64,000 nt of DNA from Acidobacteriota bacterium (GCA_004356105.1 SMYC01000026.1:11020-75019); one strand, 5' to 3'. Shown: positions 870-15,151, counted from the stretch's first letter. Notes: generated by a model from the letters alone, not told the origin. Numbers and translations: made by a program.

Positions 870-1724
870 ATGAACTCGAAGCATTTCGTTGTGGTTACTG
901 GGCTAGTTGCCGGGCTGGTTGTCGGGCTCGTCACGATGCATGGCTCGCTGAACGCGTCGTCCACGGAAGCTCCGCCGGACGGGGAGCTGTACAACGTGGT
1001 GAAGCAAAAGCTAGCGGACGGCAAGCCCGTCGTCGGGGGCACGGTGTACACGTCGGATCCGAACATCTATTGCGCGATGGCGGATGCCGGGTTCGACTTT
1101 CTGTGGATCGAGATGCAGCACAGCCCGCTCAGCTTTTCCGAGGTCGCGAGGATGATTTGGGCGTGCAAGGACGCGCCGGCGATCCCGTTCATACGCGTGC
1201 CCGATGCGACAGAGGGTGACATTCAAAAAGCGGTCGATATCGGCGCTCTCGGGATCATCGTCCCGATGGTCGATACGGTAGAGGAAGCCGAAGCGGCCGT
1301 ACGTTACGCGAAATATCCGCCCATCGGCCGCAGAAGTCAGGGCGGCGGCCAGTACCGCGCGCTCTGGGGGAAAGATTATCGCCCGACGGCCAACGACAAC
1401 ATCATGATCGTCGTCATGATCGAGACACCTGACGGGATCGCGATCGCGGATCAGATCGCGGCGGTTCCCGGTATCGACGTCGTCTTTGCCGCGAGCGGCG
1501 ACATTGGCAGCTTTACAGGTTACAAGCAGGACGACCCGCGTTACGAAAAGCTCATCGCGAAGATCCACGACGACGTGCTGAAGGCGGGAAAACGACTCGG
1601 TGGCCCGTTCGGGTGGCACGATCGCGAGGGATTCCAGTTCTTTCAAGCTTCGAGCGAGGCCGGCCTCATCAGGGCGGGCGCCAAGAGTCTGCTCGAGACG
1701 ATGAAAGGCGAGTACGAGTACTGA
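870..1724 (+). CDS. HpcH/HpaI family aldolase (2-keto-3-deoxy-acid aldolase), N-terminal TM/signal
   Basis: 284 aa with typical HpcH/HpaI blocks (DFLWIEMQHSP, GIIVPMVDTVEEAEAAV, IMIVVMIETPDGI). A GGGAGGG RBS sits 6 nt upstream of the ATG. Confidence 0.7.
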   Translation: MNSKHFVVVTGLVAGLVVGLVTMHGSLNASSTEAPPDGELYNVVKQKLADGKPVVGGTVYTSDPNIYCAMADAGFDFLWIEMQHSPLSFSEVARMIWACKDAPAIPFIRVPDATEGDIQKAVDIGALGIIVPMVDTVEEAEAAVRYAKYPPIGRRSQGGGQYRALWGKDYRPTANDNIMIVVMIETPDGIAIADQIAAVPGIDVVFAASGDIGSFTGYKQDDPRYEKLIAKIHDDVLKAGKRLGGPFGWHDREGFQFFQASSEAGLIRAGAKSLLETMKGEYEY

Positions 1725-3629: not shown

Positions 3630-5285
3630 ATGGAATGCCCAAAGTGCCTCGCCCCGCTCGCTCTCGCGGCGTTCTTGCCGGCCTGTGCGCCCGACGAGCG
3701 CCCGGTCTTGCGCATCGTCTCTGACGCGACCTTCGCACCGTTCCACTTCATCAGCGACGGGGGCACGCCGACAGGCTTTGATATCGAGCTCGTACGGCTC
3801 ATCGCCGAGCGCGTGGGACTCGAGCCCACCGTCGAAGTTCTTCCTTATGGAGAGCTTTTCGAAGGGCTTTCCGCGAAGGCGCACGATGTGGTCGCGGCGA
3901 CCACGGGGTGGACCGCGGAACGCGCGGCGGCCTACCTCTTCACCGAACCCTATTTCGTGACCTGTCAGGTCGCGCTCGTGCGCGTAGGCTCCGATGAGCC
4001 CGCCACGCTTGCGGAGCTCTCGGGACGGCGAGTCGGGGCTTCAGGGTCGGGGACAGCCGCACGTGCGATGCGGAGCATCGAAGGAGCCACGCCGGTTACC
4101 CTCGAGGAGGGCGCCGGGCTCGAGCCGCTCTTGACGGGTGCCGTTGATGCGATCATCGTCGACGAGTTCGATGCGGTCGAGGCGGCCCGGGAATCCGATG
4201 GACAGCTCCGCGTGTTGGCGCAGCCTGTCGCGAGCGAACGTTATGCTTTTGTTCTTGCTCGAGACAGGCATGCGCTGAAAGCGCAATTGGATCAAGCGCT
4301 CGCGACGCTCGAAGCAGAAGGTGAAGTTGCGGCGCTGCGTGCACGCTTCGGCGTCGAGAGGGACGCCGAGTGGCCCGTACAGATTGTACAGATAGGCTCC
4401 GGCATGGTCGTGACCGAAGGCGTCGCACAGAAAAGCGGGCCGTGCTCGGTCACCATCGACTGTCCGGTCGACGGGAACGTTCGCGAAGCGTTCTGCGGCG
4501 AGATCACGGCCGCGGACGGAAGTGTGTGGGAGGTCCCGGGTCCTATCACCGACGGCGCCGCACTCGTCGACGTCTACAACGAATGTACCGTAGGCGGCGA
4601 CAATCCTGACTTCGAGTCGGAGCTCGCGACTATCGTCGTGGACGAAGACGGCTCCGAGGTGACCGCCTACCTGTTCGGCGACAACTATTTCGAGCTCTAT
4701 GCGAACGGGCGCTTTATCGGCCGAGACGCCGTGGGCTTCACGCCATTCAATGCGCACGCGGCGCGCTATCGGGCCGCCTATCCGATCACCTATGCGGTTC
4801 TGCTCGTCGATTGGGAAGGCTATCTCGGGGTGGGGCTCGAGGATACGCGCAATCGCTTCCATATCGGTGACGGCGGATTCATCGCAAGCTTCAGCGACGG
4901 CGCCAGGACCGGCACCGAATGGAAGTGCAAAGTGTTCTATATCTCGCCCCTCGACGATGCGAGCTGCATCGAGGTGGACGCCGCCGGAAACCCCGACTCT
5001 TCCGGTTGTCCGAGCAGCGACGACACCGTGGCCTGCATCAGTTCGGACCCGACGAGCACGTGTCGCGGCGCGCATTTCGAGCTCCCCAGCCTTTGGATGA
5101 GCCCAGATTTCGACGACTCGGCCTGGCTTCAAGCGAAGACTTACACCGCCGACGAGGTCACCGGCTCCCCGGGTTTCCGCAATTACGAACACACTTTGTT
5201 CAAAGACGCCGCGTTCATTTGGACACAGAACCTGAGGTTGGATAATCTGGTCGCGTGCCGCGTGACGGTGGCCGCACCTCCCTGA
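3630..5285 (+). CDS. lipoprotein: family-3 solute-binding protein (amino-acid ABC type) fused to a ~300 aa Cys-rich domain of unknown function
   Basis: The N-terminus has a lipobox-like LAAFLPACAP followed by SBP_bac_3 blocks (DIELVRLIAERVG..., AAYLFTEPYF). The C-terminal 300 aa carry many Cys and Asp/Gly-rich stretches with no recognisable family. Confidence 0.65.
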   Translation: MECPKCLAPLALAAFLPACAPDERPVLRIVSDATFAPFHFISDGGTPTGFDIELVRLIAERVGLEPTVEVLPYGELFEGLSAKAHDVVAATTGWTAERAAAYLFTEPYFVTCQVALVRVGSDEPATLAELSGRRVGASGSGTAARAMRSIEGATPVTLEEGAGLEPLLTGAVDAIIVDEFDAVEAARESDGQLRVLAQPVASERYAFVLARDRHALKAQLDQALATLEAEGEVAALRARFGVERDAEWPVQIVQIGSGMVVTEGVAQKSGPCSVTIDCPVDGNVREAFCGEITAADGSVWEVPGPITDGAALVDVYNECTVGGDNPDFESELATIVVDEDGSEVTAYLFGDNYFELYANGRFIGRDAVGFTPFNAHAARYRAAYPITYAVLLVDWEGYLGVGLEDTRNRFHIGDGGFIASFSDGARTGTEWKCKVFYISPLDDASCIEVDAAGNPDSSGCPSSDDTVACISSDPTSTCRGAHFELPSLWMSPDFDDSAWLQAKTYTADEVTGSPGFRNYEHTLFKDAAFIWTQNLRLDNLVACRVTVAAPP

Positions 5286-5523
5286 GAACACGACGACCGC
5301 CGGCCTCCGTGTGCGGTAAGATTCGGCCATGGGTCGAGCATGGGGGGTGCCGCCTGGAGCACCGCTGCGGATATTCCTCGTCGCTTGGATCGCCGGCGCC
5401 TTCTTTGCCCGTGCTCCCATCGGTGAACGAGACAATCGTGGAAGGCGCGGCCGTCTGCGCCTTTTTTCGAACGCGTGATGCGAGCTTCCTGCGAGACCGA
5501 TTTCGCGTATTACGCACCGCACA

Positions 5524-5832
5524 GTGCTGTGGGACGGCTCCGCACGGGCGTCATCCGTACGGGAGACATCTGTTTCCGTGGAGCTCGCGGGCGAGCTCGA
5601 CCTTCAGGGGTTTCTCGCCTTGAACGACGCGATTCGTCCCGGCTACCAGAAGATTCGGGGCCGGGTGAAAATCAAGTCTGACGCGGACCCCGAGACGCTC
5701 GAGAAGCTCCGACAAGCCGTCAACGCGCACTGCCCGGTTCTCGACATCATCTCGAACCCGGTACCCCTGTGGAGCTCGAGCTCGTCCACGAAACGGCCGA
5801 GGATGCCGAGCGCGTGCCATCGGCCGGATAAT
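5524..5832 (+). pseudogene. OsmC/Ohr family protein, truncated and frameshifted
   Basis: KIKSDADPETLEKLRQAVNAHCPVLDIISNPVPL matches the OsmC C-terminal block with the conserved CP. The expected ending (ELELVHETAEDAERVPSAG-stop) is in another frame from about 5770. The N-terminal half is missing. Confidence 0.4.
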
Positions 5833-5922
5833 ATCGGGCTTCTGTCCCGCCGGCACTCCATGCGCTTCCAATCCTTCGCATAAGCCGATACCATCCCGCC
5901 GCAAGCACAAGGAGGCTTTCGA

Positions 5923-7095
5923 ATGCGAAGAATTACCCTGACCCTCGTTCTGTTGGTATCGCTGGTCACGCCGGCCGCGGCCGAGGACCACAAAATCATC
6001 GCCCCGCCCGGATCGAGAACCGACCTGCCCTTCAGCCCCGCCGTGATGGCGGGCGACTTTCTCTACTTGTCGGGCTCGCTCTCCGCGGAATCGACGGATA
6101 TCAAGGAGCAGGTCAAGCAGACGCTCGAGAATCTCAAGGCCACGTTGAAAGCCGCGGACATGGATCTTTCACACGTTGTGAGCTCAACCGTTTATTTGTC
6201 CGATGCCCGGTACTTCAGCGCCATGAACGAGGTCTACCGGAGCTACCTCCCCGATGCGCCGCCGGTGCGGGCCACGGTCCAGGCCGACATTGCCATCCCC
6301 GCGGCACTCGTCGAGATCGCCATGATCGCCGTCAAGCCCGGCGTCGAACGTAAAGTCGTGATGCCCGCGGGGGTAACGGAGTGGACCGCGCCCTACAGTC
6401 CGGGGATTATGGCGGGCGACACGTTGTTTACCGCGGGTATGGTGGGACGCAAGCGCGGCGCACCCGCTTCGGAGCAGCCGATGGATGTCGCGGGGCAGAC
6501 GAGACAGGCTCTGGCAAACGTCGAGGCCGTGCTGACCGCGGCGGGCATGAGCAAGACCGACGTGACGTCCTGCAATGTCTATCTCCCGGACGCCCGCCAT
6601 TTCCAGGACATGAACGGCGCTTACCGCGCTTTTTTCTCCGAAGCGCCGCCCGCGCGCGCCACCGTTCGCGCTGGCCTTATGGGCACAGGCCTCCATGTCG
6701 AGATCATGTGTGTCGCCGTCAAGGGCGGAGACCGCCGCATCGTTGGGCCGAGCCGCCCCAATGCCACTCTTTCGCGGGGCATTCGCGTGGGCGACCGCCT
6801 GTTTCTCTCCGGCATTACCGGGCGCGGTCCCGACGGCTACGCGCCCGGCGATGTCAAAGCGCAGACCCGTCAGGCCCTCGAGACCATCAAGGGGCTTCTC
6901 GCGGAAGAGGGGATGGACTTTACCAACGTGGTTCAGGGCCTCGTGTGGGTCACCGATATCCGGGACTTCCAGTCGATGAACGAGATTTACCGCGAGTTTC
7001 TACCCTCGCCTGCGCCCGCCCGCGCGACGGTGGGCTCGCCTCTCATGTCATCGAGCGCTCTCGTGGAAATCATGATGATCGCGGTCGAGCACTAG
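5923..7095 (+). CDS. secreted protein with three tandem RidA/YjgF/TdcF (L-PSP) domains
   Basis: Signal peptide MRRITLTLVLLVSLVTPAAA. There are three ~125-aa repeats, each with the RidA signature (AGDFLYLSG, AGDTLFTAGMVG, VGDRLFLSGITG ... ARATV...VEI). A GGAGG RBS precedes the ATG. Confidence 0.75.
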   Translation: MRRITLTLVLLVSLVTPAAAEDHKIIAPPGSRTDLPFSPAVMAGDFLYLSGSLSAESTDIKEQVKQTLENLKATLKAADMDLSHVVSSTVYLSDARYFSAMNEVYRSYLPDAPPVRATVQADIAIPAALVEIAMIAVKPGVERKVVMPAGVTEWTAPYSPGIMAGDTLFTAGMVGRKRGAPASEQPMDVAGQTRQALANVEAVLTAAGMSKTDVTSCNVYLPDARHFQDMNGAYRAFFSEAPPARATVRAGLMGTGLHVEIMCVAVKGGDRRIVGPSRPNATLSRGIRVGDRLFLSGITGRGPDGYAPGDVKAQTRQALETIKGLLAEEGMDFTNVVQGLVWVTDIRDFQSMNEIYREFLPSPAPARATVGSPLMSSSALVEIMMIAVEH

Positions 7096-7149
7096 CGCCA
7101 GCCGACAAGTCAAACCGCGCCGTGGTGCGGGCTCGTGCATCCATCGGAA

Positions 7150-7330
7150 AAGTAGGTATCGCACCGCGGGCCAACACGGAGACTGCGGAAGACATCTGGA
7201 TGCTAGGTAAGGATGGCGAGCCTCAGCCGTTTGTCGTTACGCGTTTTCGTGAATGGGCCCCGCGTTTTTCTCCCGACGGGCGTTTCCTGGCTTACGTTTC
7301 CAACGAGTCGGGCCGGCACGAGGTGTCCTG
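7150..7330 (+). pseudogene. PD40/TolB-like propeller blade remnant
   Basis: EPQPFVVTRFREWAPRFSPDGRFLAYVSNESGRHEV is a single WD40-like beta-propeller (PD40) blade with no gene context. It ends abruptly where the HNH frame begins. Confidence 0.4.
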
Positions 7331-7659
7331 GTGTGCGCGGCATCGCTGCCGCGGTGAAGCGTTTCGTGTGGAGGCGAGATGGCGGGCAGTGCACATTCGT
7401 TGCGGATGATGGCAGACGATGTCCCGAGCGCAACCGGCTCGAGTACCATCACGACGATCCGTACGGAAAGGGTGGCGATCGTAGTGCGAGCAATGTTCGG
7501 CTCCTATGCAAATGCCACAACCTGTACATGGGCGAGCTGGACTTCGGCAAAGAGAAAATGGACGCGTACCGTCGTTCAGCCGACCGGGTCGGTGAACCGG
7601 TGCCGTCGTTTGAGCTCTGTCCGGGGAGAGTTGAACCTCGCCCACTTGTTGCGATGTAG
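7213..7659 (+). CDS. HNH endonuclease domain protein (DUF222/13E12-type HNH C-terminus), probably a fragment
   Basis: WRRDGGQCTFVADDGRRCPERNRLEYHHDDPYGKGG...NVRLLCKCHN is a canonical HNH motif. The N-terminal 40 aa have no similarity and the true start is uncertain. Confidence 0.5.
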   Translation: MASLSRLSLRVFVNGPRVFLPTGVSWLTFPTSRAGTRCPGVRGIAAAVKRFVWRRDGGQCTFVADDGRRCPERNRLEYHHDDPYGKGGDRSASNVRLLCKCHNLYMGELDFGKEKMDAYRRSADRVGEPVPSFELCPGRVEPRPLVAM

Positions 7660-9066: not shown

Positions 9067-10222
9067 GAACGCGCTTGCTCGCGTTCGTGCCGCTTCTGCT
9101 CGCGGGGTGCGGTGTGGGGTCGTCTACCGAGCCGGCGGATCCGGAGGGCATGCTTGGCCGCGCGTGCGCCTACCTCACGAGTCAGCAGGCGGAGGACGGC
9201 GGGTGGCACAGTCAGACCTACGGCCTGGCCCGATCGGGCCAAGCCTGGACTCCGTTCGTCCTGCACGCGCTCCTCGAAGCTTCCGAGAGCCATCCGTCGG
9301 TGCCTCGACCGGACGTCGGGCGCGCACTCGACTTCATTCGTCGACATATTAACGAGGAGGGGGTTCTCGGCCTGGCGGATCCCGACGTGCCTGAATACCC
9401 CAACTACGCGACGGCTTTCGCGCTTCGTTCTGTGGTTCGCGTCGGACGTGAAGAGGACCAACCGCTTGTCGAGCGGATGCGCAGCTTTCTGGCGGCGGAA
9501 CAGTTTCAGGCAGAAAACGGCTACGATGAGACGTCGCTGGCATATGGGAGTTGGGGATTCGGTGGCCCTCGCCCCGAGGGCTCGCCCGGCCACCTGGGTC
9601 TCTCCACACCCGGCACGTTCTCCAGGCGCTCCGGGAGGCGGGGCTTTCCGATCCCAACGTGTACGAACGGGCGCAGGCGTTCTTGCGGCTCGTCCAGCGA
9701 CACCCCGCCGATACGCGACCTCAACCTCCGGTCACCGAAGTCGCCAACGAGAACGTCCCGTACGATGGCGGGTTCTATTTCTCGCCCGTCGTTCTCGAGG
9801 CCAACAAGGGCGCGCTCGTCGAAAGCGAGGACGGCTCGTACTTCGAGAGTTACACCAGCGCTACTTGCGACGGTGTGCTCTCGCTCCTGGAAGCAGGGGT
9901 AGCGAAAGAAGACGAGCGCGTGCTCGCGGCGCGTGAGTGGCTTCAGAGCCATCCGCGTCTCGACTACCCTGAAGGGATCCCGGAAGATGACCCCGAGGCC
10001 TTCGGTGACGCGATCTTCTTCTATCACCTTGCCGCTCGCGCCGAGGTATACGAAGCGCTCGATTGGCCCGGAGACTGGCGCGACGCCATGTCCACGGAGC
10101 TTGCGCCTAGACAGCTCCTGGACGGGAGCTTCGTCAACACGCGAAACCACCTCATGAAGGAGGATGACCCGCTGTTGGCGACCGCACTTGCGGTCATCGC
10201 GCTGACCCGCGCCGCGAGGTGA
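9063..10222 (+). CDS. prenyltransferase/squalene-oxidase repeat lipoprotein (paralog of the upstream gene), with a frameshift near 9580
   Basis: ATGA start/stop overlap with the upstream gene. Lipobox LLLAGCGV. QW motifs QQAEDGGWHSQ and RQLLDGSFVNT. The reading frame changes between SWGFGGPRPEGSPGH and LHTRHVLQALREAGL. Confidence 0.6.
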
Positions 10223-10267
10223 AGAAGTCTTTGGTCGTGCCGATTCGCGATCGGATGCGGTACTGTT

Positions 10268-10840
10268 ATGTCTATGGCGAACTGGGTTCGATATGCCATT
10301 GTACTGTCCGGCCTCGTCGCAGGCGTCACCTGCCGCGACTATCGCGCCATGTGGGAGGGGCGCTACGTGGAGGCGTTGGCGGAGCTTGGCGCAGCGAAAG
10401 GGGACCAAGAGCGCTTCTACGCCCTAACCGACGCCGCGACAGCGAGCTTTGAGTTAGGGAAGGCAGAGGAGGCACGTAGTTACGCGAACGAGCTGCTGAA
10501 TCTGGCGCCGCGCTTCCCTCGCGACTGGAACTACGGCAACGCGATCCACGACGGGCACATGGTGCTCGGTAGGGTTGCTCTCAGCGAGGGCGCCGTCGAG
10601 ACGGCGGAGAAGGAGCTGCTGCTCGCAGGTGGGACGCCCGGCTCCCCCCAGTTGGACAGCTTCGGACCGAACATGAGCCTCGCGAAGGATCTGCTGGAAC
10701 AGAATCACAGGGACGCTGTCGTGGAGTACTTTGGTCTGTGTGCCAAGTTCTGGAAACAGGAGCGCGGGAAGCTCCGCCGATGGACGGAGCGCGCCGAGGC
10801 CGGTCGGGTTCCGGACTTTGGCGCGAACCTGCTCTACTGA
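10268..10840 (+). CDS. hypothetical membrane-anchored protein
   Basis: 190 aa ORF with an N-terminal hydrophobic helix and good coding-like composition. No recognisable domain. Confidence 0.4.
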   Translation: MSMANWVRYAIVLSGLVAGVTCRDYRAMWEGRYVEALAELGAAKGDQERFYALTDAATASFELGKAEEARSYANELLNLAPRFPRDWNYGNAIHDGHMVLGRVALSEGAVETAEKELLLAGGTPGSPQLDSFGPNMSLAKDLLEQNHRDAVVEYFGLCAKFWKQERGKLRRWTERAEAGRVPDFGANLLY

Positions 10841-10896
10841 GGTTGCTCTCGACCCCCCAGATTGACTGGGTCCTGATGTAGTGCGCGATCTCTCTC

Positions 10897-11094
10897 TCAC
10901 TCGTAACGCAACGCGACGATCGGATCGACACGCATGGCGCGGCGTGCCGGCACGAAGCTCCCAAGTATCGCCACCACCAGCAGCAATACGATCGGTACGA
11001 CTAGACTAGATGCTTTCTGCCAGCACGGGCCGTTGATCCAGGTAATCTGTGGCAGCTTCGTACGCCATCGCAAACTCGAGCACTTCGCGGTCAT
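10897..11094 (-). pseudogene. ADOP/FtsX-family permease C-terminal remnant
   Basis: LLLVVAILGSFVPARRAMRVDPIVALRYE is the characteristic last TM plus C-terminus of MacB-like ADOP permeases. Only about 35 aa remain. Confidence 0.45.
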
Positions 11095-12559
11095 GCCCCA
11101 TTCGCCCCATGAACTGCATGCCCATGGGTCGACCCCGTCCGTCGAACCCGGCCGGCAGATTGACGACGGGCAACCCCGCTAGCGTTCCGCCAATGACCAC
11201 CTCCATCCATCGATGATACGTGTCCATGGCCCGACCGTTGATCGACTTCGGCCAGTGGAGATCGGCCGAGAACGGAAACACCTGAGCCGTCGGTAATGCC
11301 AGAACGTCATAGCGCTCGAACAGCTCGTGCAAAGCCCTGTACCAGTCAGCCCGTGCAATAGCCGCCTCTGCGACCCGCGATGCCGACATGTCGAAGCCGC
11401 CCTCGATCTCCCAGATGAGCTCCGGCTTGAGTAGCTTCCTCGTCTCCGGATCGTCGTAAAGCGCTTTGGAACTGCTCAGTGCCCAGTGGCGAAGCGTAAG
11501 CCACGTTTGCCAGAGCCGCGCCATGTCATAGGCGGGCATACAGTCTTCAACAATCACGCCGTGGGTCGAAATGCCCTCGAGGCTGCGCTCGCACAGATCC
11601 AGCAAACCCGGTTCGGTCGCCAGGTAACCCTCGTAGTCACCCATCCACCCGACGCGCAAGCCGGCGAAGTCGGCTTGTCGGAACGCGTCATACGCGGGAA
11701 TCTCATCTCTCAGACTCAAAGGCGCGCGGGAATCGTAGCCAGCCATGGTTCCAAGAAGGCGAATGGTGTCTTCGACATTCCGTCCCAACGGCCCGTCGGT
11801 GGCCAGTTGCTGGTAGTAGAGGTCATTGCTCGGCAAGCCGGGAACGCGTCCCTGGCTCGGGCGAAAACCGATGAGGTTATTGAAGGCTGCGGGGTTTCGC
11901 AGCGAGCCCATCATGTCGCTGCCGTCAGCGGTCGGCAACATGTGCGACGCCATGCCGGAGGCCGCGCCGCCGCTGCTGCCCCCAGCCGTCAAGGCCGGGT
12001 CGTAAGCGCACTTCGTCGTACCGTGGACATCGTTGTAGCTCTGCGAGCCCAGCCCGAATTCCGGTGTATTGGTTTTGCCGATGAAAATGGCTCCCTGCGC
12101 ACGCATGCGGGCGATGTGAAGATCGTCCTCCTCGGCAATCGTCCCCGCGAAGATTCTCGAGCCGGAGCTCGTCTCCAAACCCTTCGCGTTGGCTAGGTCT
12201 TTGACGGCATGCGGCATACCGTGCATCCATCCCCAATATTCATCTTCGTCCAGCGCCCGATCGGCGCGCTCTGCTTGCCTAACCAGCTCATCGTCATCGA
12301 CCATGCTGACGATGGCGTTGTAGACCGGGTTGTAGCGGTGAATTCTTGCCAGGTACGCCCGCATCACTTCAACGCAACGGACCTGCCGCTTCCGAATGGC
12401 CGCCGACAACTGTGATGCGCTCAAGCTGGTAATGTCAGCAGGCAAGTCCTGCGCAAACGCGGTACCGGTGCGCAGGAAGGGCAGCGCCAGCGCTGCTCCG
12501 AGACTCGAAGTGCTTTCTAGAAACTGGCGCCGGTTCAAGCTTGTTTTTGATGTGCTCAC
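11006..12559 (-). CDS. amidase (amidase-signature family), Tat-secreted
   Basis: Twin-arginine signal (NRRQFLESTSSLGAALALP...AFA). Amidase signature GGSSGGAASGMAS. 517 aa. Confidence 0.85.
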   Translation of the reverse strand: MSTSKTSLNRRQFLESTSSLGAALALPFLRTGTAFAQDLPADITSLSASQLSAAIRKRQVRCVEVMRAYLARIHRYNPVYNAIVSMVDDDELVRQAERADRALDEDEYWGWMHGMPHAVKDLANAKGLETSSGSRIFAGTIAEEDDLHIARMRAQGAIFIGKTNTPEFGLGSQSYNDVHGTTKCAYDPALTAGGSSGGAASGMASHMLPTADGSDMMGSLRNPAAFNNLIGFRPSQGRVPGLPSNDLYYQQLATDGPLGRNVEDTIRLLGTMAGYDSRAPLSLRDEIPAYDAFRQADFAGLRVGWMGDYEGYLATEPGLLDLCERSLEGISTHGVIVEDCMPAYDMARLWQTWLTLRHWALSSSKALYDDPETRKLLKPELIWEIEGGFDMSASRVAEAAIARADWYRALHELFERYDVLALPTAQVFPFSADLHWPKSINGRAMDTYHRWMEVVIGGTLAGLPVVNLPAGFDGRGRPMGMQFMGRMGHDREVLEFAMAYEAATDYLDQRPVLAESI

Positions 12560-12655: not shown

Positions 12656-14476
12656 CTATTCGTGCCTGAGAGCGAGCATCGGGTCGAGGCGCGTGGCGCG
12701 CCGGGCGGGCCAGTAGACGGCTCCGAGGGCGACCGTGGCGAGAACGATCGTCGCGAGAAGCAACGTCGTCGCATCGGTCGGCTCGACCCCGTAGAGCGAG
12801 CTCGCAAGAAAGCGGGTCAGCAGGACCGCGCCCACCAGCCCGCCGGCGAGTCCGAGCCAGACCTTCTTCATGGCTTGGCTGACGATGAGCGACACGACGT
12901 TCGCTCGCGAGGCGCCGAGCGCCATGCGAAGGCCCATCTCCCGCGATCGGAGACCCACCGCGAAGGCGATGACACCGTAGATCCCGATCGAGGCCAGTGC
13001 GAGGGCGGCGTCGGCGAACGCTCCCAGGATGATGAGGCTGAAGCGATTCGCTGCCATCGACCCCGCGACCTGGGCGTCGAGCGTGTCGACCGCGTGGATG
13101 GGAAGCTCCGCGTCGGCGAGCTTGAGCTCGTTGCGCACGCGCGGCAACAAAGCCAGCAGGGAATGCTGCGCCTGGCCGGTGCGCAGAATAAATGTTCTCC
13201 AGCTCATCCAGCGCCAAGTGCGTTGGAGCGAAGGCGCGTACATCGCACCTCGCGCCGGCTCGTCGAGCCCGTAATGTTTCGTATCGGCGGCGACGCCCAC
13301 GACTTCGTGCCACGGACCATCCTCTGCGAACGCAATACGCCGTCCCAGCGGATTCTCGTCCGACCAGATGCGCCGCGCCATGGTCTCGTTGATCACGAGA
13401 ACCGGCGTGGACTCCGCGCGGTCGCGCTCGTCGAACGCCCTTCCTTTCAGAAGCGCAATGCCTGTGGCGCGAAAGTAGTCCGGCGATATCGCGCGATAAG
13501 GCATGAGGGTGCGCTCACCTGGCGCGGGTGCGGCTCGTCCTTCGACGAGAAAGCTGCCTGTTGATTCGTTCGTGTTCAGCGGGAGGCTCGTTGTCGCCCC
13601 CACGGTTCGAACCCCGGGGATGGCGCCAAGCTTCTCTTCTAGCTCGCCGTAGAACTGCTCCTGCTGCTGGATGTCTGGGTATCGCGATGGTGGAAGGTAA
13701 AACGACACGGCGAGCGCACCCCTGGGATTGAACCCTGGGTCGACTTGGAGAAGACGCCAGAAACTGTTGAGCAAGAGCCCGGCTCCTGCGAGAAGAACGA
13801 GCGACAGTGCCACCTCGGCGATGACGAGACCACTCCGGACACGCTCTCATAGAACGTGAGGCTCATGCCCAAAGCTCCACCCACGAGCGCCAGGAGAGTG
13901 CTTTCGACGAGAAACTGCTTCAGAAGCTGGTGCCTTCCCGCGCCCATGGCGACCCGGATGGCGGTCTCCCGCTCCCGCGAGCTCGCGCGCGCGAGGAGAA
14001 GATTCGCGACGTTGACGTAGGCAATGAGAAGCACGAGGGCGACCGCACCGAGAAGCACCAGGAGGCGCGTTCGCTCTTGGCGTACGAGATCTTCGTGGAG
14101 TGAGACGACGTTGACACTCCACCCCGTCATCCATTCCGGATGGTCCTCACTCAGGCGCGCCGCGATCGTCGTCATGTCGGCGCGCGCCTCGTCGAGGCTC
14201 ACGCCCGGGCGCCGCCGGCCAACGACACGCAGCATGTGCGCCTTCCGGTTATGCCGGTCGTCGCTGTCGAAACGGCGGGGGAACCCACAGGTCGGCATCA
14301 GACATCACCAGCCGAGACGTGGGCGGAAGCACGCCTACGATCGTGACCGCATCCCCGTCGATGCGAATCGTGCGTCCGATGGCACCGGGGTCAGCGCCGA
14401 AACGGGACGTCCAGAGATCATGGCTCAAGACCGTAACGTAAGGCGCGCCCGTTTCGTGATCCGACTCCACGAACAA
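12656..14476 (-). pseudogene. ADOP/MacB-like ABC transporter permease (FtsX + MacB periplasmic domain), N-terminally truncated with at least two frameshifts
   Basis: Three overlapping ORFs (12656-13813, 13639-14298, 14249-14476) together give the MacB_PCD and both FtsX halves. The C-terminus is RLDPMLALRHE. The first TM/N-terminus is absent. Confidence 0.6.
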
Positions 14477-14585: not shown

Positions 14586-14918
14586 TTAGGCTCCGATAAT
14601 CTCATTGAGCCCCTCTACAACGTGAGCCAGTTCCTCGGGACTCGCTCGGGCAATTCGCCTGCCGACTCTTTCGAGCGCCAACGTCCGTATTTGACTGATC
14701 TTTATCCACGACTTCTTCGGGAGACCCTTGGCGTCACACTTCAGAGTGAGCGGGAAATGCGCGCGCTGAGGTACGCTCGTCAGGGCGACGGCAATGATGG
14801 TCCCTGATCGCTCGTTGAACACATCTTGACTAAGAACAAGAATCGGGCGACTGCCGGCTTGCTCTCGTCCCCGGGTTGGGTTTAGGTCCGCCCAACGAAT
14901 GTCGCCCCTTAATATTCG
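14586..14918 (-). CDS. MazF/PemK-family type II toxin (mRNA interferase)
   Basis: RGDIRWADLNPTRGREQAGSRPILVLSQDVFNERSGTIIAVALTS is the PemK/MazF core. The likely start is the internal Met MARILRG. Confidence 0.7.
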   Translation of the reverse strand, partial: RILRGDIRWADLNPTRGREQAGSRPILVLSQDVFNERSGTIIAVALTSVPQRAHFPLTLKCDAKGLPKKSWIKISQIRTLALERVGRRIARASPEELAHVVEGLNEIIGA

Positions 14919-15151
14919 GGCCATTCCGCCGAATCCGCTGACACGCCTTCTTCCGCGAGGCCCTTTTCGAAATCCCGATCGAGCTTGGCGCACTCTCGTG
15001 CTAGACGACTTCGCTCCAGGCGTTCAAGCTTTTCGAAGACAGCCTCTTCGATCGCCTGGCTGCGATTGGGGTAGAATTCTTCCGCAACGAGCCTGTCCAA
15101 ACGTTCGAGCGTCGCTACATCCAAAGAAATCGCGATTTTCGCTCGAGGCAT
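14909..15151 (-). CDS. RHH/CopG-type antitoxin partner of the MazF-like toxin
   Basis: 80 aa. The N-terminal MPRAKIAISLDVATLERLD is a ribbon-helix-helix motif. It overlaps the toxin start by a few nt. Confidence 0.6.
   Translation of the reverse strand: MPRAKIAISLDVATLERLDRLVAEEFYPNRSQAIEEAVFEKLERLERSRLARECAKLDRDFEKGLAEEGVSADSAEWPEY

Follow-up and report, generated by a model that had tools for sequence, protein, structure and literature searches.

The window analysed here is a stretch of 64,000 nucleotides from an Acidobacteriota bacterium (GCA_004356105.1 SMYC01000026.1:11020-75019), in which a gene for a protein of 390 amino acids, identical to NCBI TDI47931.1 and labelled there "RidA family protein", has as its neighbours genes for an HpcH aldolase, a class I/II aminotransferase, an SBP_bac_3 lipoprotein, an OsmC-like fragment, a prenyltransferase-like protein and an amidase with a Tat signal (Table 1). 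We refer to the gene as 3x-RidA. Its ATG is the earliest possible start past the preceding stop, and the ORF list of the window contains no in-frame start 5′ of it. The strong ribosome-binding site and the lack of an upstream alternative fix the start codon, which means that the hydrophobic N terminus is translated.

Table 1. Features of the 3x-RidA locus in window coordinates, with the basis of each assignment and, for the Rid domains, the key residues
Feature	Position	Strand	Basis	Key residues
HpcH/HpaI aldolase	870..1724			
SBP_bac_3 protein	3630..5285			
OsmC-like ORF	5524..5883	+	C-terminal OsmC profile match, positions 36-98 of 100	
Shine-Dalgarno AAGGAGG	5909..5915	+	direct sequence reading; 7 nt 5′ of ATG	
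3x-RidA gene, 390 aa + stop	5923..7095	+	ORF list; PF01042 matched three times	
Predicted Sec-type signal peptide, residues 1-20 (MRRITLTLVLLVSLVTPAAA, then ED)	5923..5982	+	rule-based n/h/c regions, A-x-A site	
Rid domain 1, residues 21-140	5983..6342	+	repeat alignment to E. coli RidA; best PDB sequence match 2dyy, residues 35-138	F37 (Tyr17 equivalent), G51, N102, R116, T118, E131
Rid domain 2, residues 141-269	6343..6729	+	repeat alignment; PDB sequence match 7kgc, residues 153-267	Y158, G172, N231, R245, T247, E260; co-varying pair Cys217/Cys263
Rid domain 3, residues 270-390	6730..7092	+	repeat alignment; PDB sequence matches 8qok, 1nq3, residues 271-389	L283, G297, N353, R367, T369, E382
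PD40 repeat fragment with overlapping HNH-like ORF	7113..7659	+	PD40 match, E=4.6e-6	
HNH-endonuclease-like ORF	7213..7659		Pfam HNH 19.6 bits, below the cutoff of 21.4	
Amidase	11006..12559		Tat-type SLNRRQFL signal	
MacB/FtsX-type permease	12656..14298	-	overlapping ORFs 12656-13813 and 13639-14298	
MazF/PemK toxin ORF with overlapping antitoxin ORF	14586..15151	-	MazF/PemK match, E=6e-27	

Several of the neighbouring genes have features of their own. The OsmC-like open reading frame, 40 nt upstream of the 3x-RidA gene, matches only the C-terminal part of its profile, and its last ~35 residues look out of frame, with an alternative frame from ~5769 reading VELELVHETAEDAERVPSAG up to a stop at 5831; this suggests a truncated or frameshifted OsmC-like gene. 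Directly 3′ of the 3x-RidA stop, a lone PD40 β-propeller repeat fragment is overlapped by the HNH-endonuclease-like open reading frame, an arrangement that resembles what remains of a PD40-containing gene after its interruption by a small mobile HNH gene. At the related locus L003, an open reading frame of a Ser/Thr kinase cluster starts ~770 nt downstream of the RidA gene, approximately in the place that the PD40 fragment occupies in the window. The aldolase, the SBP_bac_3 protein and the amidase look exported like the 3x-RidA product. An N-terminal extension of the HpcH/HpaI aldolase is hydrophobic (MNSKHFVVVTGLVAGLVVGLVT...), and export would be unusual for an HpcH aldolase; the SBP_bac_3 protein combines a lipobox-like FLPAC with a ~290-aa C-terminal extension that has no Pfam match. 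Further downstream, the division of the MacB/FtsX-type permease into two overlapping open reading frames suggests that its gene is frameshifted or a pseudogene, or that the sequence contains an error, and the MazF/PemK toxin open reading frame overlaps one for a ribbon-helix-helix antitoxin, the two forming a type II toxin-antitoxin pair.

As the initial annotation had proposed, the 3x-RidA product consists of three RidA domains fused in one chain. PF01042 (Ribonuc_L-PSP, the Rid/YjgF family) matches it in three stretches (E=1.1e-76; 255 bits against a cutoff of 27.3), as does TIGR00004 (NCBIfam), and each repeat alone matches Rid models with E values of 1e-21 to 1e-23. A sequence search of the PDB returned only single-domain chains of ~125 amino acids, each covering one of three segments of the query. 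The repeats abut without a spacer, and each begins with an N-terminal strand motif of its own (DHKIIAPPG, ERKVVMPAG and DRRIVGPS). The three-domain Rid architecture is thus virtually certain.

Residue conservation was assessed by aligning the three repeats of 65 full-length homologues (195 repeats) to E. coli RidA. The equivalent of Gly31 is kept in 65 of 65 proteins in each of the three repeats. For repeats 1, 2 and 3, respectively, the Arg105 equivalent is kept in 65, 65 and 63 of the 65 proteins, the Glu120 equivalent in 63, 64 and 65, and the Asn88 equivalent in 57, 65 and 63; position 107 is Thr in all three. The position equivalent to Tyr17 is mostly Phe in repeat 1, mostly Tyr in repeat 2 and Leu or Phe in repeat 3 (F, Y and L in the query), and position 109 has diverged by repeat (E/Q, R and G in repeats 1, 2 and 3, respectively). 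In A. thaliana RidA, R165 and T167 hold pyruvate, with E180 contributed by the adjacent subunit at 3.3 Å from C2 (PMC4960622). The R-A-T of the query corresponds to this R165/T167 pair, and the motif therefore matches the experimentally defined RidA site. The conserved Arg sets the imine-hydrolysing Rid subfamilies apart from others and is essential for imine hydrolysis, and Arg-bearing Rid proteins have proved to be imine deaminases (PMC4433059; PMC5619798). This Arg, which marks the imine-hydrolysing group (RidA and Rid1-3) and which the initial annotation had singled out for a check in each repeat, is present in all three repeats of the query (R116, R245 and R367).

An AlphaFold2 model computed from a 65-sequence alignment has a mean pLDDT of 92.9 and a pTM of 0.91. 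In this model, the protein is predicted to be a single compact, confidently packed body rather than three beads on a string. Single repeats superpose on RidA, UK114 and RutC chains (TMt 0.81-0.93; Foldseek), and the seven best Foldseek matches in the PDB are chorismatases (4bps, 5ag3 and 5a3k), aligned over ~350 columns with TM values of 0.52-0.64. Chorismatases are reportedly single chains with pseudo-threefold YjgF-like symmetry, a description that is said to go back to Juneja et al. in 2014. The pTM value and the whole-chain alignment to chorismatases support a compact body of three domains, which may pack like a RidA trimer, as in the covalent pseudo-trimer that had been put forward initially. 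Although the chorismatases FkbO, Hyg5 and XanB2 are the best whole-chain structural matches, they share only 17-18% sequence identity with the query and act in the cytoplasm, in natural-product metabolism, through one chorismate site, whereas the query keeps RidA-type residues in all three repeats. An assignment as a chorismatase of the FkbO/Hyg5 type was rejected on the model TIGR04444, which gives 22.7 bits (E=5e-5) where its cutoff requires 325; the resemblance is limited to structure.

In repeat 2, Cys217 and Cys263, which map to T74 and A123 of the E. coli protein, co-vary among the 65 homologues, with 48 C/C, 0 C/non-C, 10 non-C/C and 7 with neither, in raw counts that ignore phylogeny. 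From the 1-4-2-3 strand order of the fold, the two residues would lie on neighbouring antiparallel strands, and the pair would fit a disulfide and an oxidising compartment.

Within one protein, the repeats have 41-43% identity to each other, as against an average of 55-59% between same-position repeats of different proteins and ~29% between any repeat and E. coli RidA. Each of the 195 repeats has as its nearest neighbour a same-position repeat of another protein. This clustering by position indicates that the triplication predates the radiation of the family and is ancient. A recent tandem duplication or an assembly artefact was considered and rejected, given that the repeats share no extended DNA identity with one another and that orthologous repeats cluster by position. 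In A. thaliana RidA, the K136-E182 salt bridge (K73/E122 in E. coli) is critical for trimer assembly, as established by mutagenesis (PMC4960622). This type of inter-subunit salt bridge is kept in only one of the 195 repeats, the other 194 having non-complementary residues, a loss that would be expected if the covalent joining of the domains now did the work of assembly.

Residues 1-20 are extra to the RidA domain, which starts at about residue 21, and they have the make-up of the signal peptide that the initial annotation had suspected. The segment is laid out as MRR (n-region), ITLTLVLLVSLV (h-region) and TPAAA (c-region), followed by EDHK. Sec/SPase I signals were recognized by a positive n-region, a hydrophobic h-region of 7-15 residues and a c-region with small residues at -3 and -1; by these rules the query has an export-type N terminus, with a positive n-region, an h-region of ~12 residues, a helix-breaking Pro, and Ala at both -3 and -1. 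The signal-peptide call was based on these rules and on conservation across the family, and the family pattern was weighted as the stronger evidence. A strongly hydrophobic 10-residue window is found near the N terminus in 114 of 121 proteins (the query and its 120 closest homologues), and the remaining seven are visibly truncated. The sequence of the segment diverges among homologues, yet it always precedes a conserved (E/D)(K/R)K-I-I-A-P motif, and such divergence at constant character ahead of a conserved motif is how a cleaved signal peptide would be expected to behave. Residues 1-20 are also the sole low-confidence part of the AlphaFold2 model (pLDDT 52-55, as against >87 elsewhere). Judged from sequence, an extracytoplasmic location of the protein is likely.

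Two other export routes were considered and rejected. Tat signals were taken to have a conserved S/T-R-R-x-F-L-K and a long, weakly hydrophobic signal. The query does have RR, but among its homologues this gives way to RK, KR, KK or one R, and the short signals are strongly hydrophobic, which argues for Sec rather than Tat. A lipoprotein signal would end in a lipobox of the form [LVI][ASTVI][GAS]C, and the query has no Cys in residues 1-40.

With respect to subfamily, the three repeats score 79.4, 82.0 and 76.7 bits against the TIGR00004 cutoff of 106.25, the whole-protein score of 227.7 being the sum over three domains. The single repeats thus fall below the cutoff, which suggests domains that have diverged from archetypal RidA. 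The RutC equivalog TIGR03610 was rejected (58-67 bits per repeat against a cutoff of 169.1, with a whole-protein score of 177 bits that is again a three-domain sum), and no rut genes lie near the query gene. The PRK11401 equivalog was likewise rejected, with a score below its curated cutoff. We classify the protein as an Arg-containing 3x-RidA of the Rid superfamily and do not file it as a verified archetypal RidA.

The same architecture, which the initial annotation had suggested looking for in other genomes, is found in Acidobacteriota, Gemmatimonadota and Planctomycetota. A word-indexed search gave 1744 matches, the best 120 of which are all three-domain proteins of ~390-410 aa with 47-96% identity. 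A genome scan places relatives in Gemmatimonadota, Planctomycetota and, within Acidobacteriota, in Ca. Marinacidobacterales (92-95% identity), Thermoanaerobaculia, Aminicenantes and Vicinamibacteria. An exhaustive phmmer search against 1.84 billion representatives yielded 12,841 matches at E<=1e-3 and 164 at E<=1e-30. Among 101 full-length three-domain cluster representatives, 61 pass a strict signal-peptide rule (12 of them lipobox-like), ~9 are borderline and ~30 begin directly with the Rid domain, so that ~60-70% of the related three-domain clusters have signal peptides or lipoboxes. The signal-less representatives are more distant from the query and include Bryobacterales and a diplonemid eukaryote; no Enterococcus was seen among the cluster look-ups. 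The presence of signal-bearing and signal-less representatives indicates that both exported and cytoplasmic 3x-RidA proteins exist, and the query appears to belong to a large exported group.

Some of the relatives have peculiarities of their own. The diplonemid protein (P0226, from the EukProt transcriptome of Lacrimia lanifica) is a signal-less 3x-RidA of 384 aa, which means either that the triple fusion may extend beyond bacteria or that the transcriptome is contaminated. One acidobacterial metagenome-assembled genome (CAMYKY01) encodes two 3x-RidA paralogues (L001 and L026) with identities of 93% and 47% to the query, so that two diverged exported copies would be retained in at least some genomes. 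A protein of 803 aa (P0205) has six Rid-domain matches and is a possible 6x fusion. Larger architectures among the relatives also include P0159 (673 aa), P0165 (524 aa) and L032 8549-11197, with three-domain proteins that have extra N- or C-terminal regions of 145-300 aa. At L003 (OZ253507.1, the closest complete genome), the orthologous 3x-RidA (9881-11169) is represented by overlapping open reading frames, 9881-10819 and 10753-11169, probably owing to a frameshift or indel in a long-read assembly. At another locus (L049), a single-domain Rid of 143 aa (4967-5398, plus strand) lies 600 nt 5′ of a 3x-RidA. Its N terminus is short and hydrophobic (MKLAMFLLLAGANA), its catalytic Arg is replaced by Ser (PPASTLV), and the protein may be an exported, Arg-less Rid paralogue.

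The genomic neighbourhood was surveyed by tblastn of the window's neighbours against 43 related loci, by de novo clustering of flanking open reading frames with Pfam searches on the recurrent clusters, and through the called genes of six diverse homologues; the survey comprised 98 flanking proteins in 18 de-replicated lineages. The neighbouring aminotransferase, aldolase, amidase and peptidase genes had been taken by the initial annotation to fit an extracytoplasmic deaminase role, a view that the survey does not support. Across the 43 loci, the neighbours seen in the window are common only to L003, a near-identical genome of essentially the same species, and the supposed peptidase is only the PD40 fragment. 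A locus whose 3x-RidA is 92% identical to the query (L002) already has different flanks, with the upstream gene on the opposite strand, and the called-gene contexts of the six diverse homologues differ from one another. No enzyme family flanks the gene in more than three of the 18 lineages, and neither an imine-generating exported enzyme nor any other partner is conserved next to it; a search of the window for a DAO-type oxidase gave no match. The sole recurrent block, made up of an Orn/DAP decarboxylase, an amino-acid permease, a class-V aminotransferase and GCV_T, occurs in three related acidobacterial lineages, and the PLP enzymes that do lie near 3x-RidA genes look cytoplasmic. At L046, a 3x-RidA is flanked by a peptidase M28 and YjeF_N, and downstream follow hydantoinase A/B and a DAO-family oxidoreductase, a suggestive arrangement in a single case. 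In the absence of a partner, and with only clade-restricted synteny, a functional argument from context is rejected; the 3x-RidA gene behaves as a stand-alone unit.

The name 3x-RidA was given by Niehaus et al. (BMC Genomics 16:382, 2015; PMC4433059), who read the architecture as a covalently linked trimer and gave EF_0115 of Enterococcus faecalis as the example. The core idea of a single-chain triple RidA that acts as a covalent trimer is thus already published, and the initial annotation overstated this point; only the export aspect appears to be undescribed. The query shares with the proteins of Niehaus et al. the three tandem Rid domains per polypeptide, the covalent-trimer reading and the essential Arg, and differs from them in that it and a large clade of its relatives bear Sec or lipoprotein signals. 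Signal peptides, secretion, membranes, localisation, per-repeat divergence and genomic context are absent from that paper (PMC4433059), and in the searchable literature on fused or exported Rid proteins we found fusion only there and export nowhere. Predicted export, the lost trimer salt bridge and the asymmetry of the sites appear to be new in silico observations. With homotrimeric RidA/YjgF/TdcF/UK114 (1qu9, 2uyn and A. thaliana RidA, 5hp7), the query shares the fold of each repeat and the Arg105/residue-107/Glu120 active-site constellation, which in RidA is situated at inter-subunit clefts. Whereas those proteins are ~125 aa long, cytoplasmic or organellar, and held together non-covalently via the K-E salt bridge, the query has covalently joined domains, has lost the salt bridge, has three non-identical sites and has a predicted export signal.

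On balance, we think it somewhat probable that the query is a Sec-exported, single-chain pseudo-trimer of the Rid/YjgF fold that hydrolyses imino/enamine acids. The chain would be exported unfolded by Sec and cleaved at about Ala20/Glu21 to give a mature protein of ~40 kDa, which would fold in the periplasm into the barrel normally built from three separate RidA subunits, with three non-identical inter-domain clefts. In each cleft, the Arg-Ala-Thr of one repeat (R116/T118, R245/T247 or R367/T369) would bind the carboxylate and C2 of a 2-imino/enamine acid, the conserved Glu supplied by the adjacent repeat (E131, E260 or E382) would sit beside C2, and hydrolysis would release a 2-oxo acid and ammonium. 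One plausible reason for fusing the domains is that assembly after export in unfolded form would then be independent of subunit concentration. Imine/enamine deaminase chemistry is itself favoured, with modest assurance, by the conserved residues, and our confidence in any specific physiological substrate is low. The most plausible substrates are imino acids from extracytoplasmic FAD-dependent amino-acid oxidases or dehydrogenases, although no such partner is linked to the gene.

The lack of a linked imine source is one of several observations that would suit an exported pseudo-trimer with a different function, whether another hydrolysis or deamination, the binding of 2-oxo acids or carboxylates, or a stress-activated holdase role like that of N-chlorinated RidA. 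The per-domain scores below the curated RidA-subfamily cutoff, the systematic differences among the three sites at positions 17 (F, Y and L/F) and 109, and the varied chemistries that the Rid fold supports (chorismatase, RutC and 2-aminomuconate deaminase) point the same way. We nevertheless regard a different function as unlikely: none of the three repeats shows more than slight variation in the Arg/Thr/Glu constellation that defines the imine-hydrolysing Rid subfamilies, and the chorismatase (TIGR04444) and RutC models both score below their cutoffs.

The remaining alternatives to a cleaved, Sec-exported deaminase concern where the protein resides. Its N terminus might act as an uncleaved signal-anchor that keeps the pseudo-trimer attached to the inner membrane, on its outer face, instead of releasing it into the periplasm; a positive n-region (MRR) followed by a hydrophobic stretch is what such an anchor would have, and the relatives with lipoboxes imply that membrane tethering occurs in the 3x-RidA family. 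However, the ~12-residue h-region is too short for a membrane-spanning helix, the Pro and A-A-A motif that follow it are typical of SPase I cleavage, and the same n/h/c layout is found throughout the clade, all of which makes an anchor improbable. Alternatively, the protein could be an ordinary cytoplasmic 3x-RidA that protects PLP enzymes, its N-terminal extension being no working export signal, in line with the ~30 of 101 three-domain cluster representatives that lack any signal and with the three lineages in which the gene lies beside a PLP-dependent decarboxylase and a class-V aminotransferase, the classic RidA context. We consider this very improbable for the query, as its start codon is fixed by a strong ribosome-binding site with no upstream alternative, the character of the extension is kept despite sequence divergence in 114 of 121 proteins, and lipobox variants exist; kept character and lipobox variants alike would be hard to explain without selection for export.

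A Sec-exported, Arg-containing pseudo-trimer would leave the basic classification unchanged, as a Rid-family member of a previously named architecture; the query appears to be an exported variant of this architecture, which has been named but is uncharacterised. A broader reading, which we put forward tentatively and think less probable than not, is that exported 3x-RidA proteins represent an unrecognised extracytoplasmic enamine/imine metabolism in Acidobacteriota, Gemmatimonadota and Planctomycetota, with the fusion as an adaptation to export. Periplasmic or surface-tethered deaminases would finish the reactions of exported amino-acid or amine oxidases, release ammonium and prevent imine damage, and the triple fusion would let an obligate trimer pass unfolded through Sec and still assemble. 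Such an adaptation would explain both the export signals in most 3x-RidA relatives and the lost trimer salt bridge. To our knowledge, RidA biology has been framed entirely around the shielding of cytoplasmic or organellar PLP enzymes from 2-aminoacrylate. The three non-equivalent sites would make the protein well suited to studies of the number of sites that a Rid trimer requires, and a Rid clade built for export, if real, would show cleanly, in a natural case, how a gene fusion can take the place of oligomer assembly, with the trimer salt bridge gone and the three sites diverging independently. It would also mean that reactive imines and enamines are handled outside the cytoplasm as well, for example during extracellular amino-acid oxidation for nitrogen scavenging.
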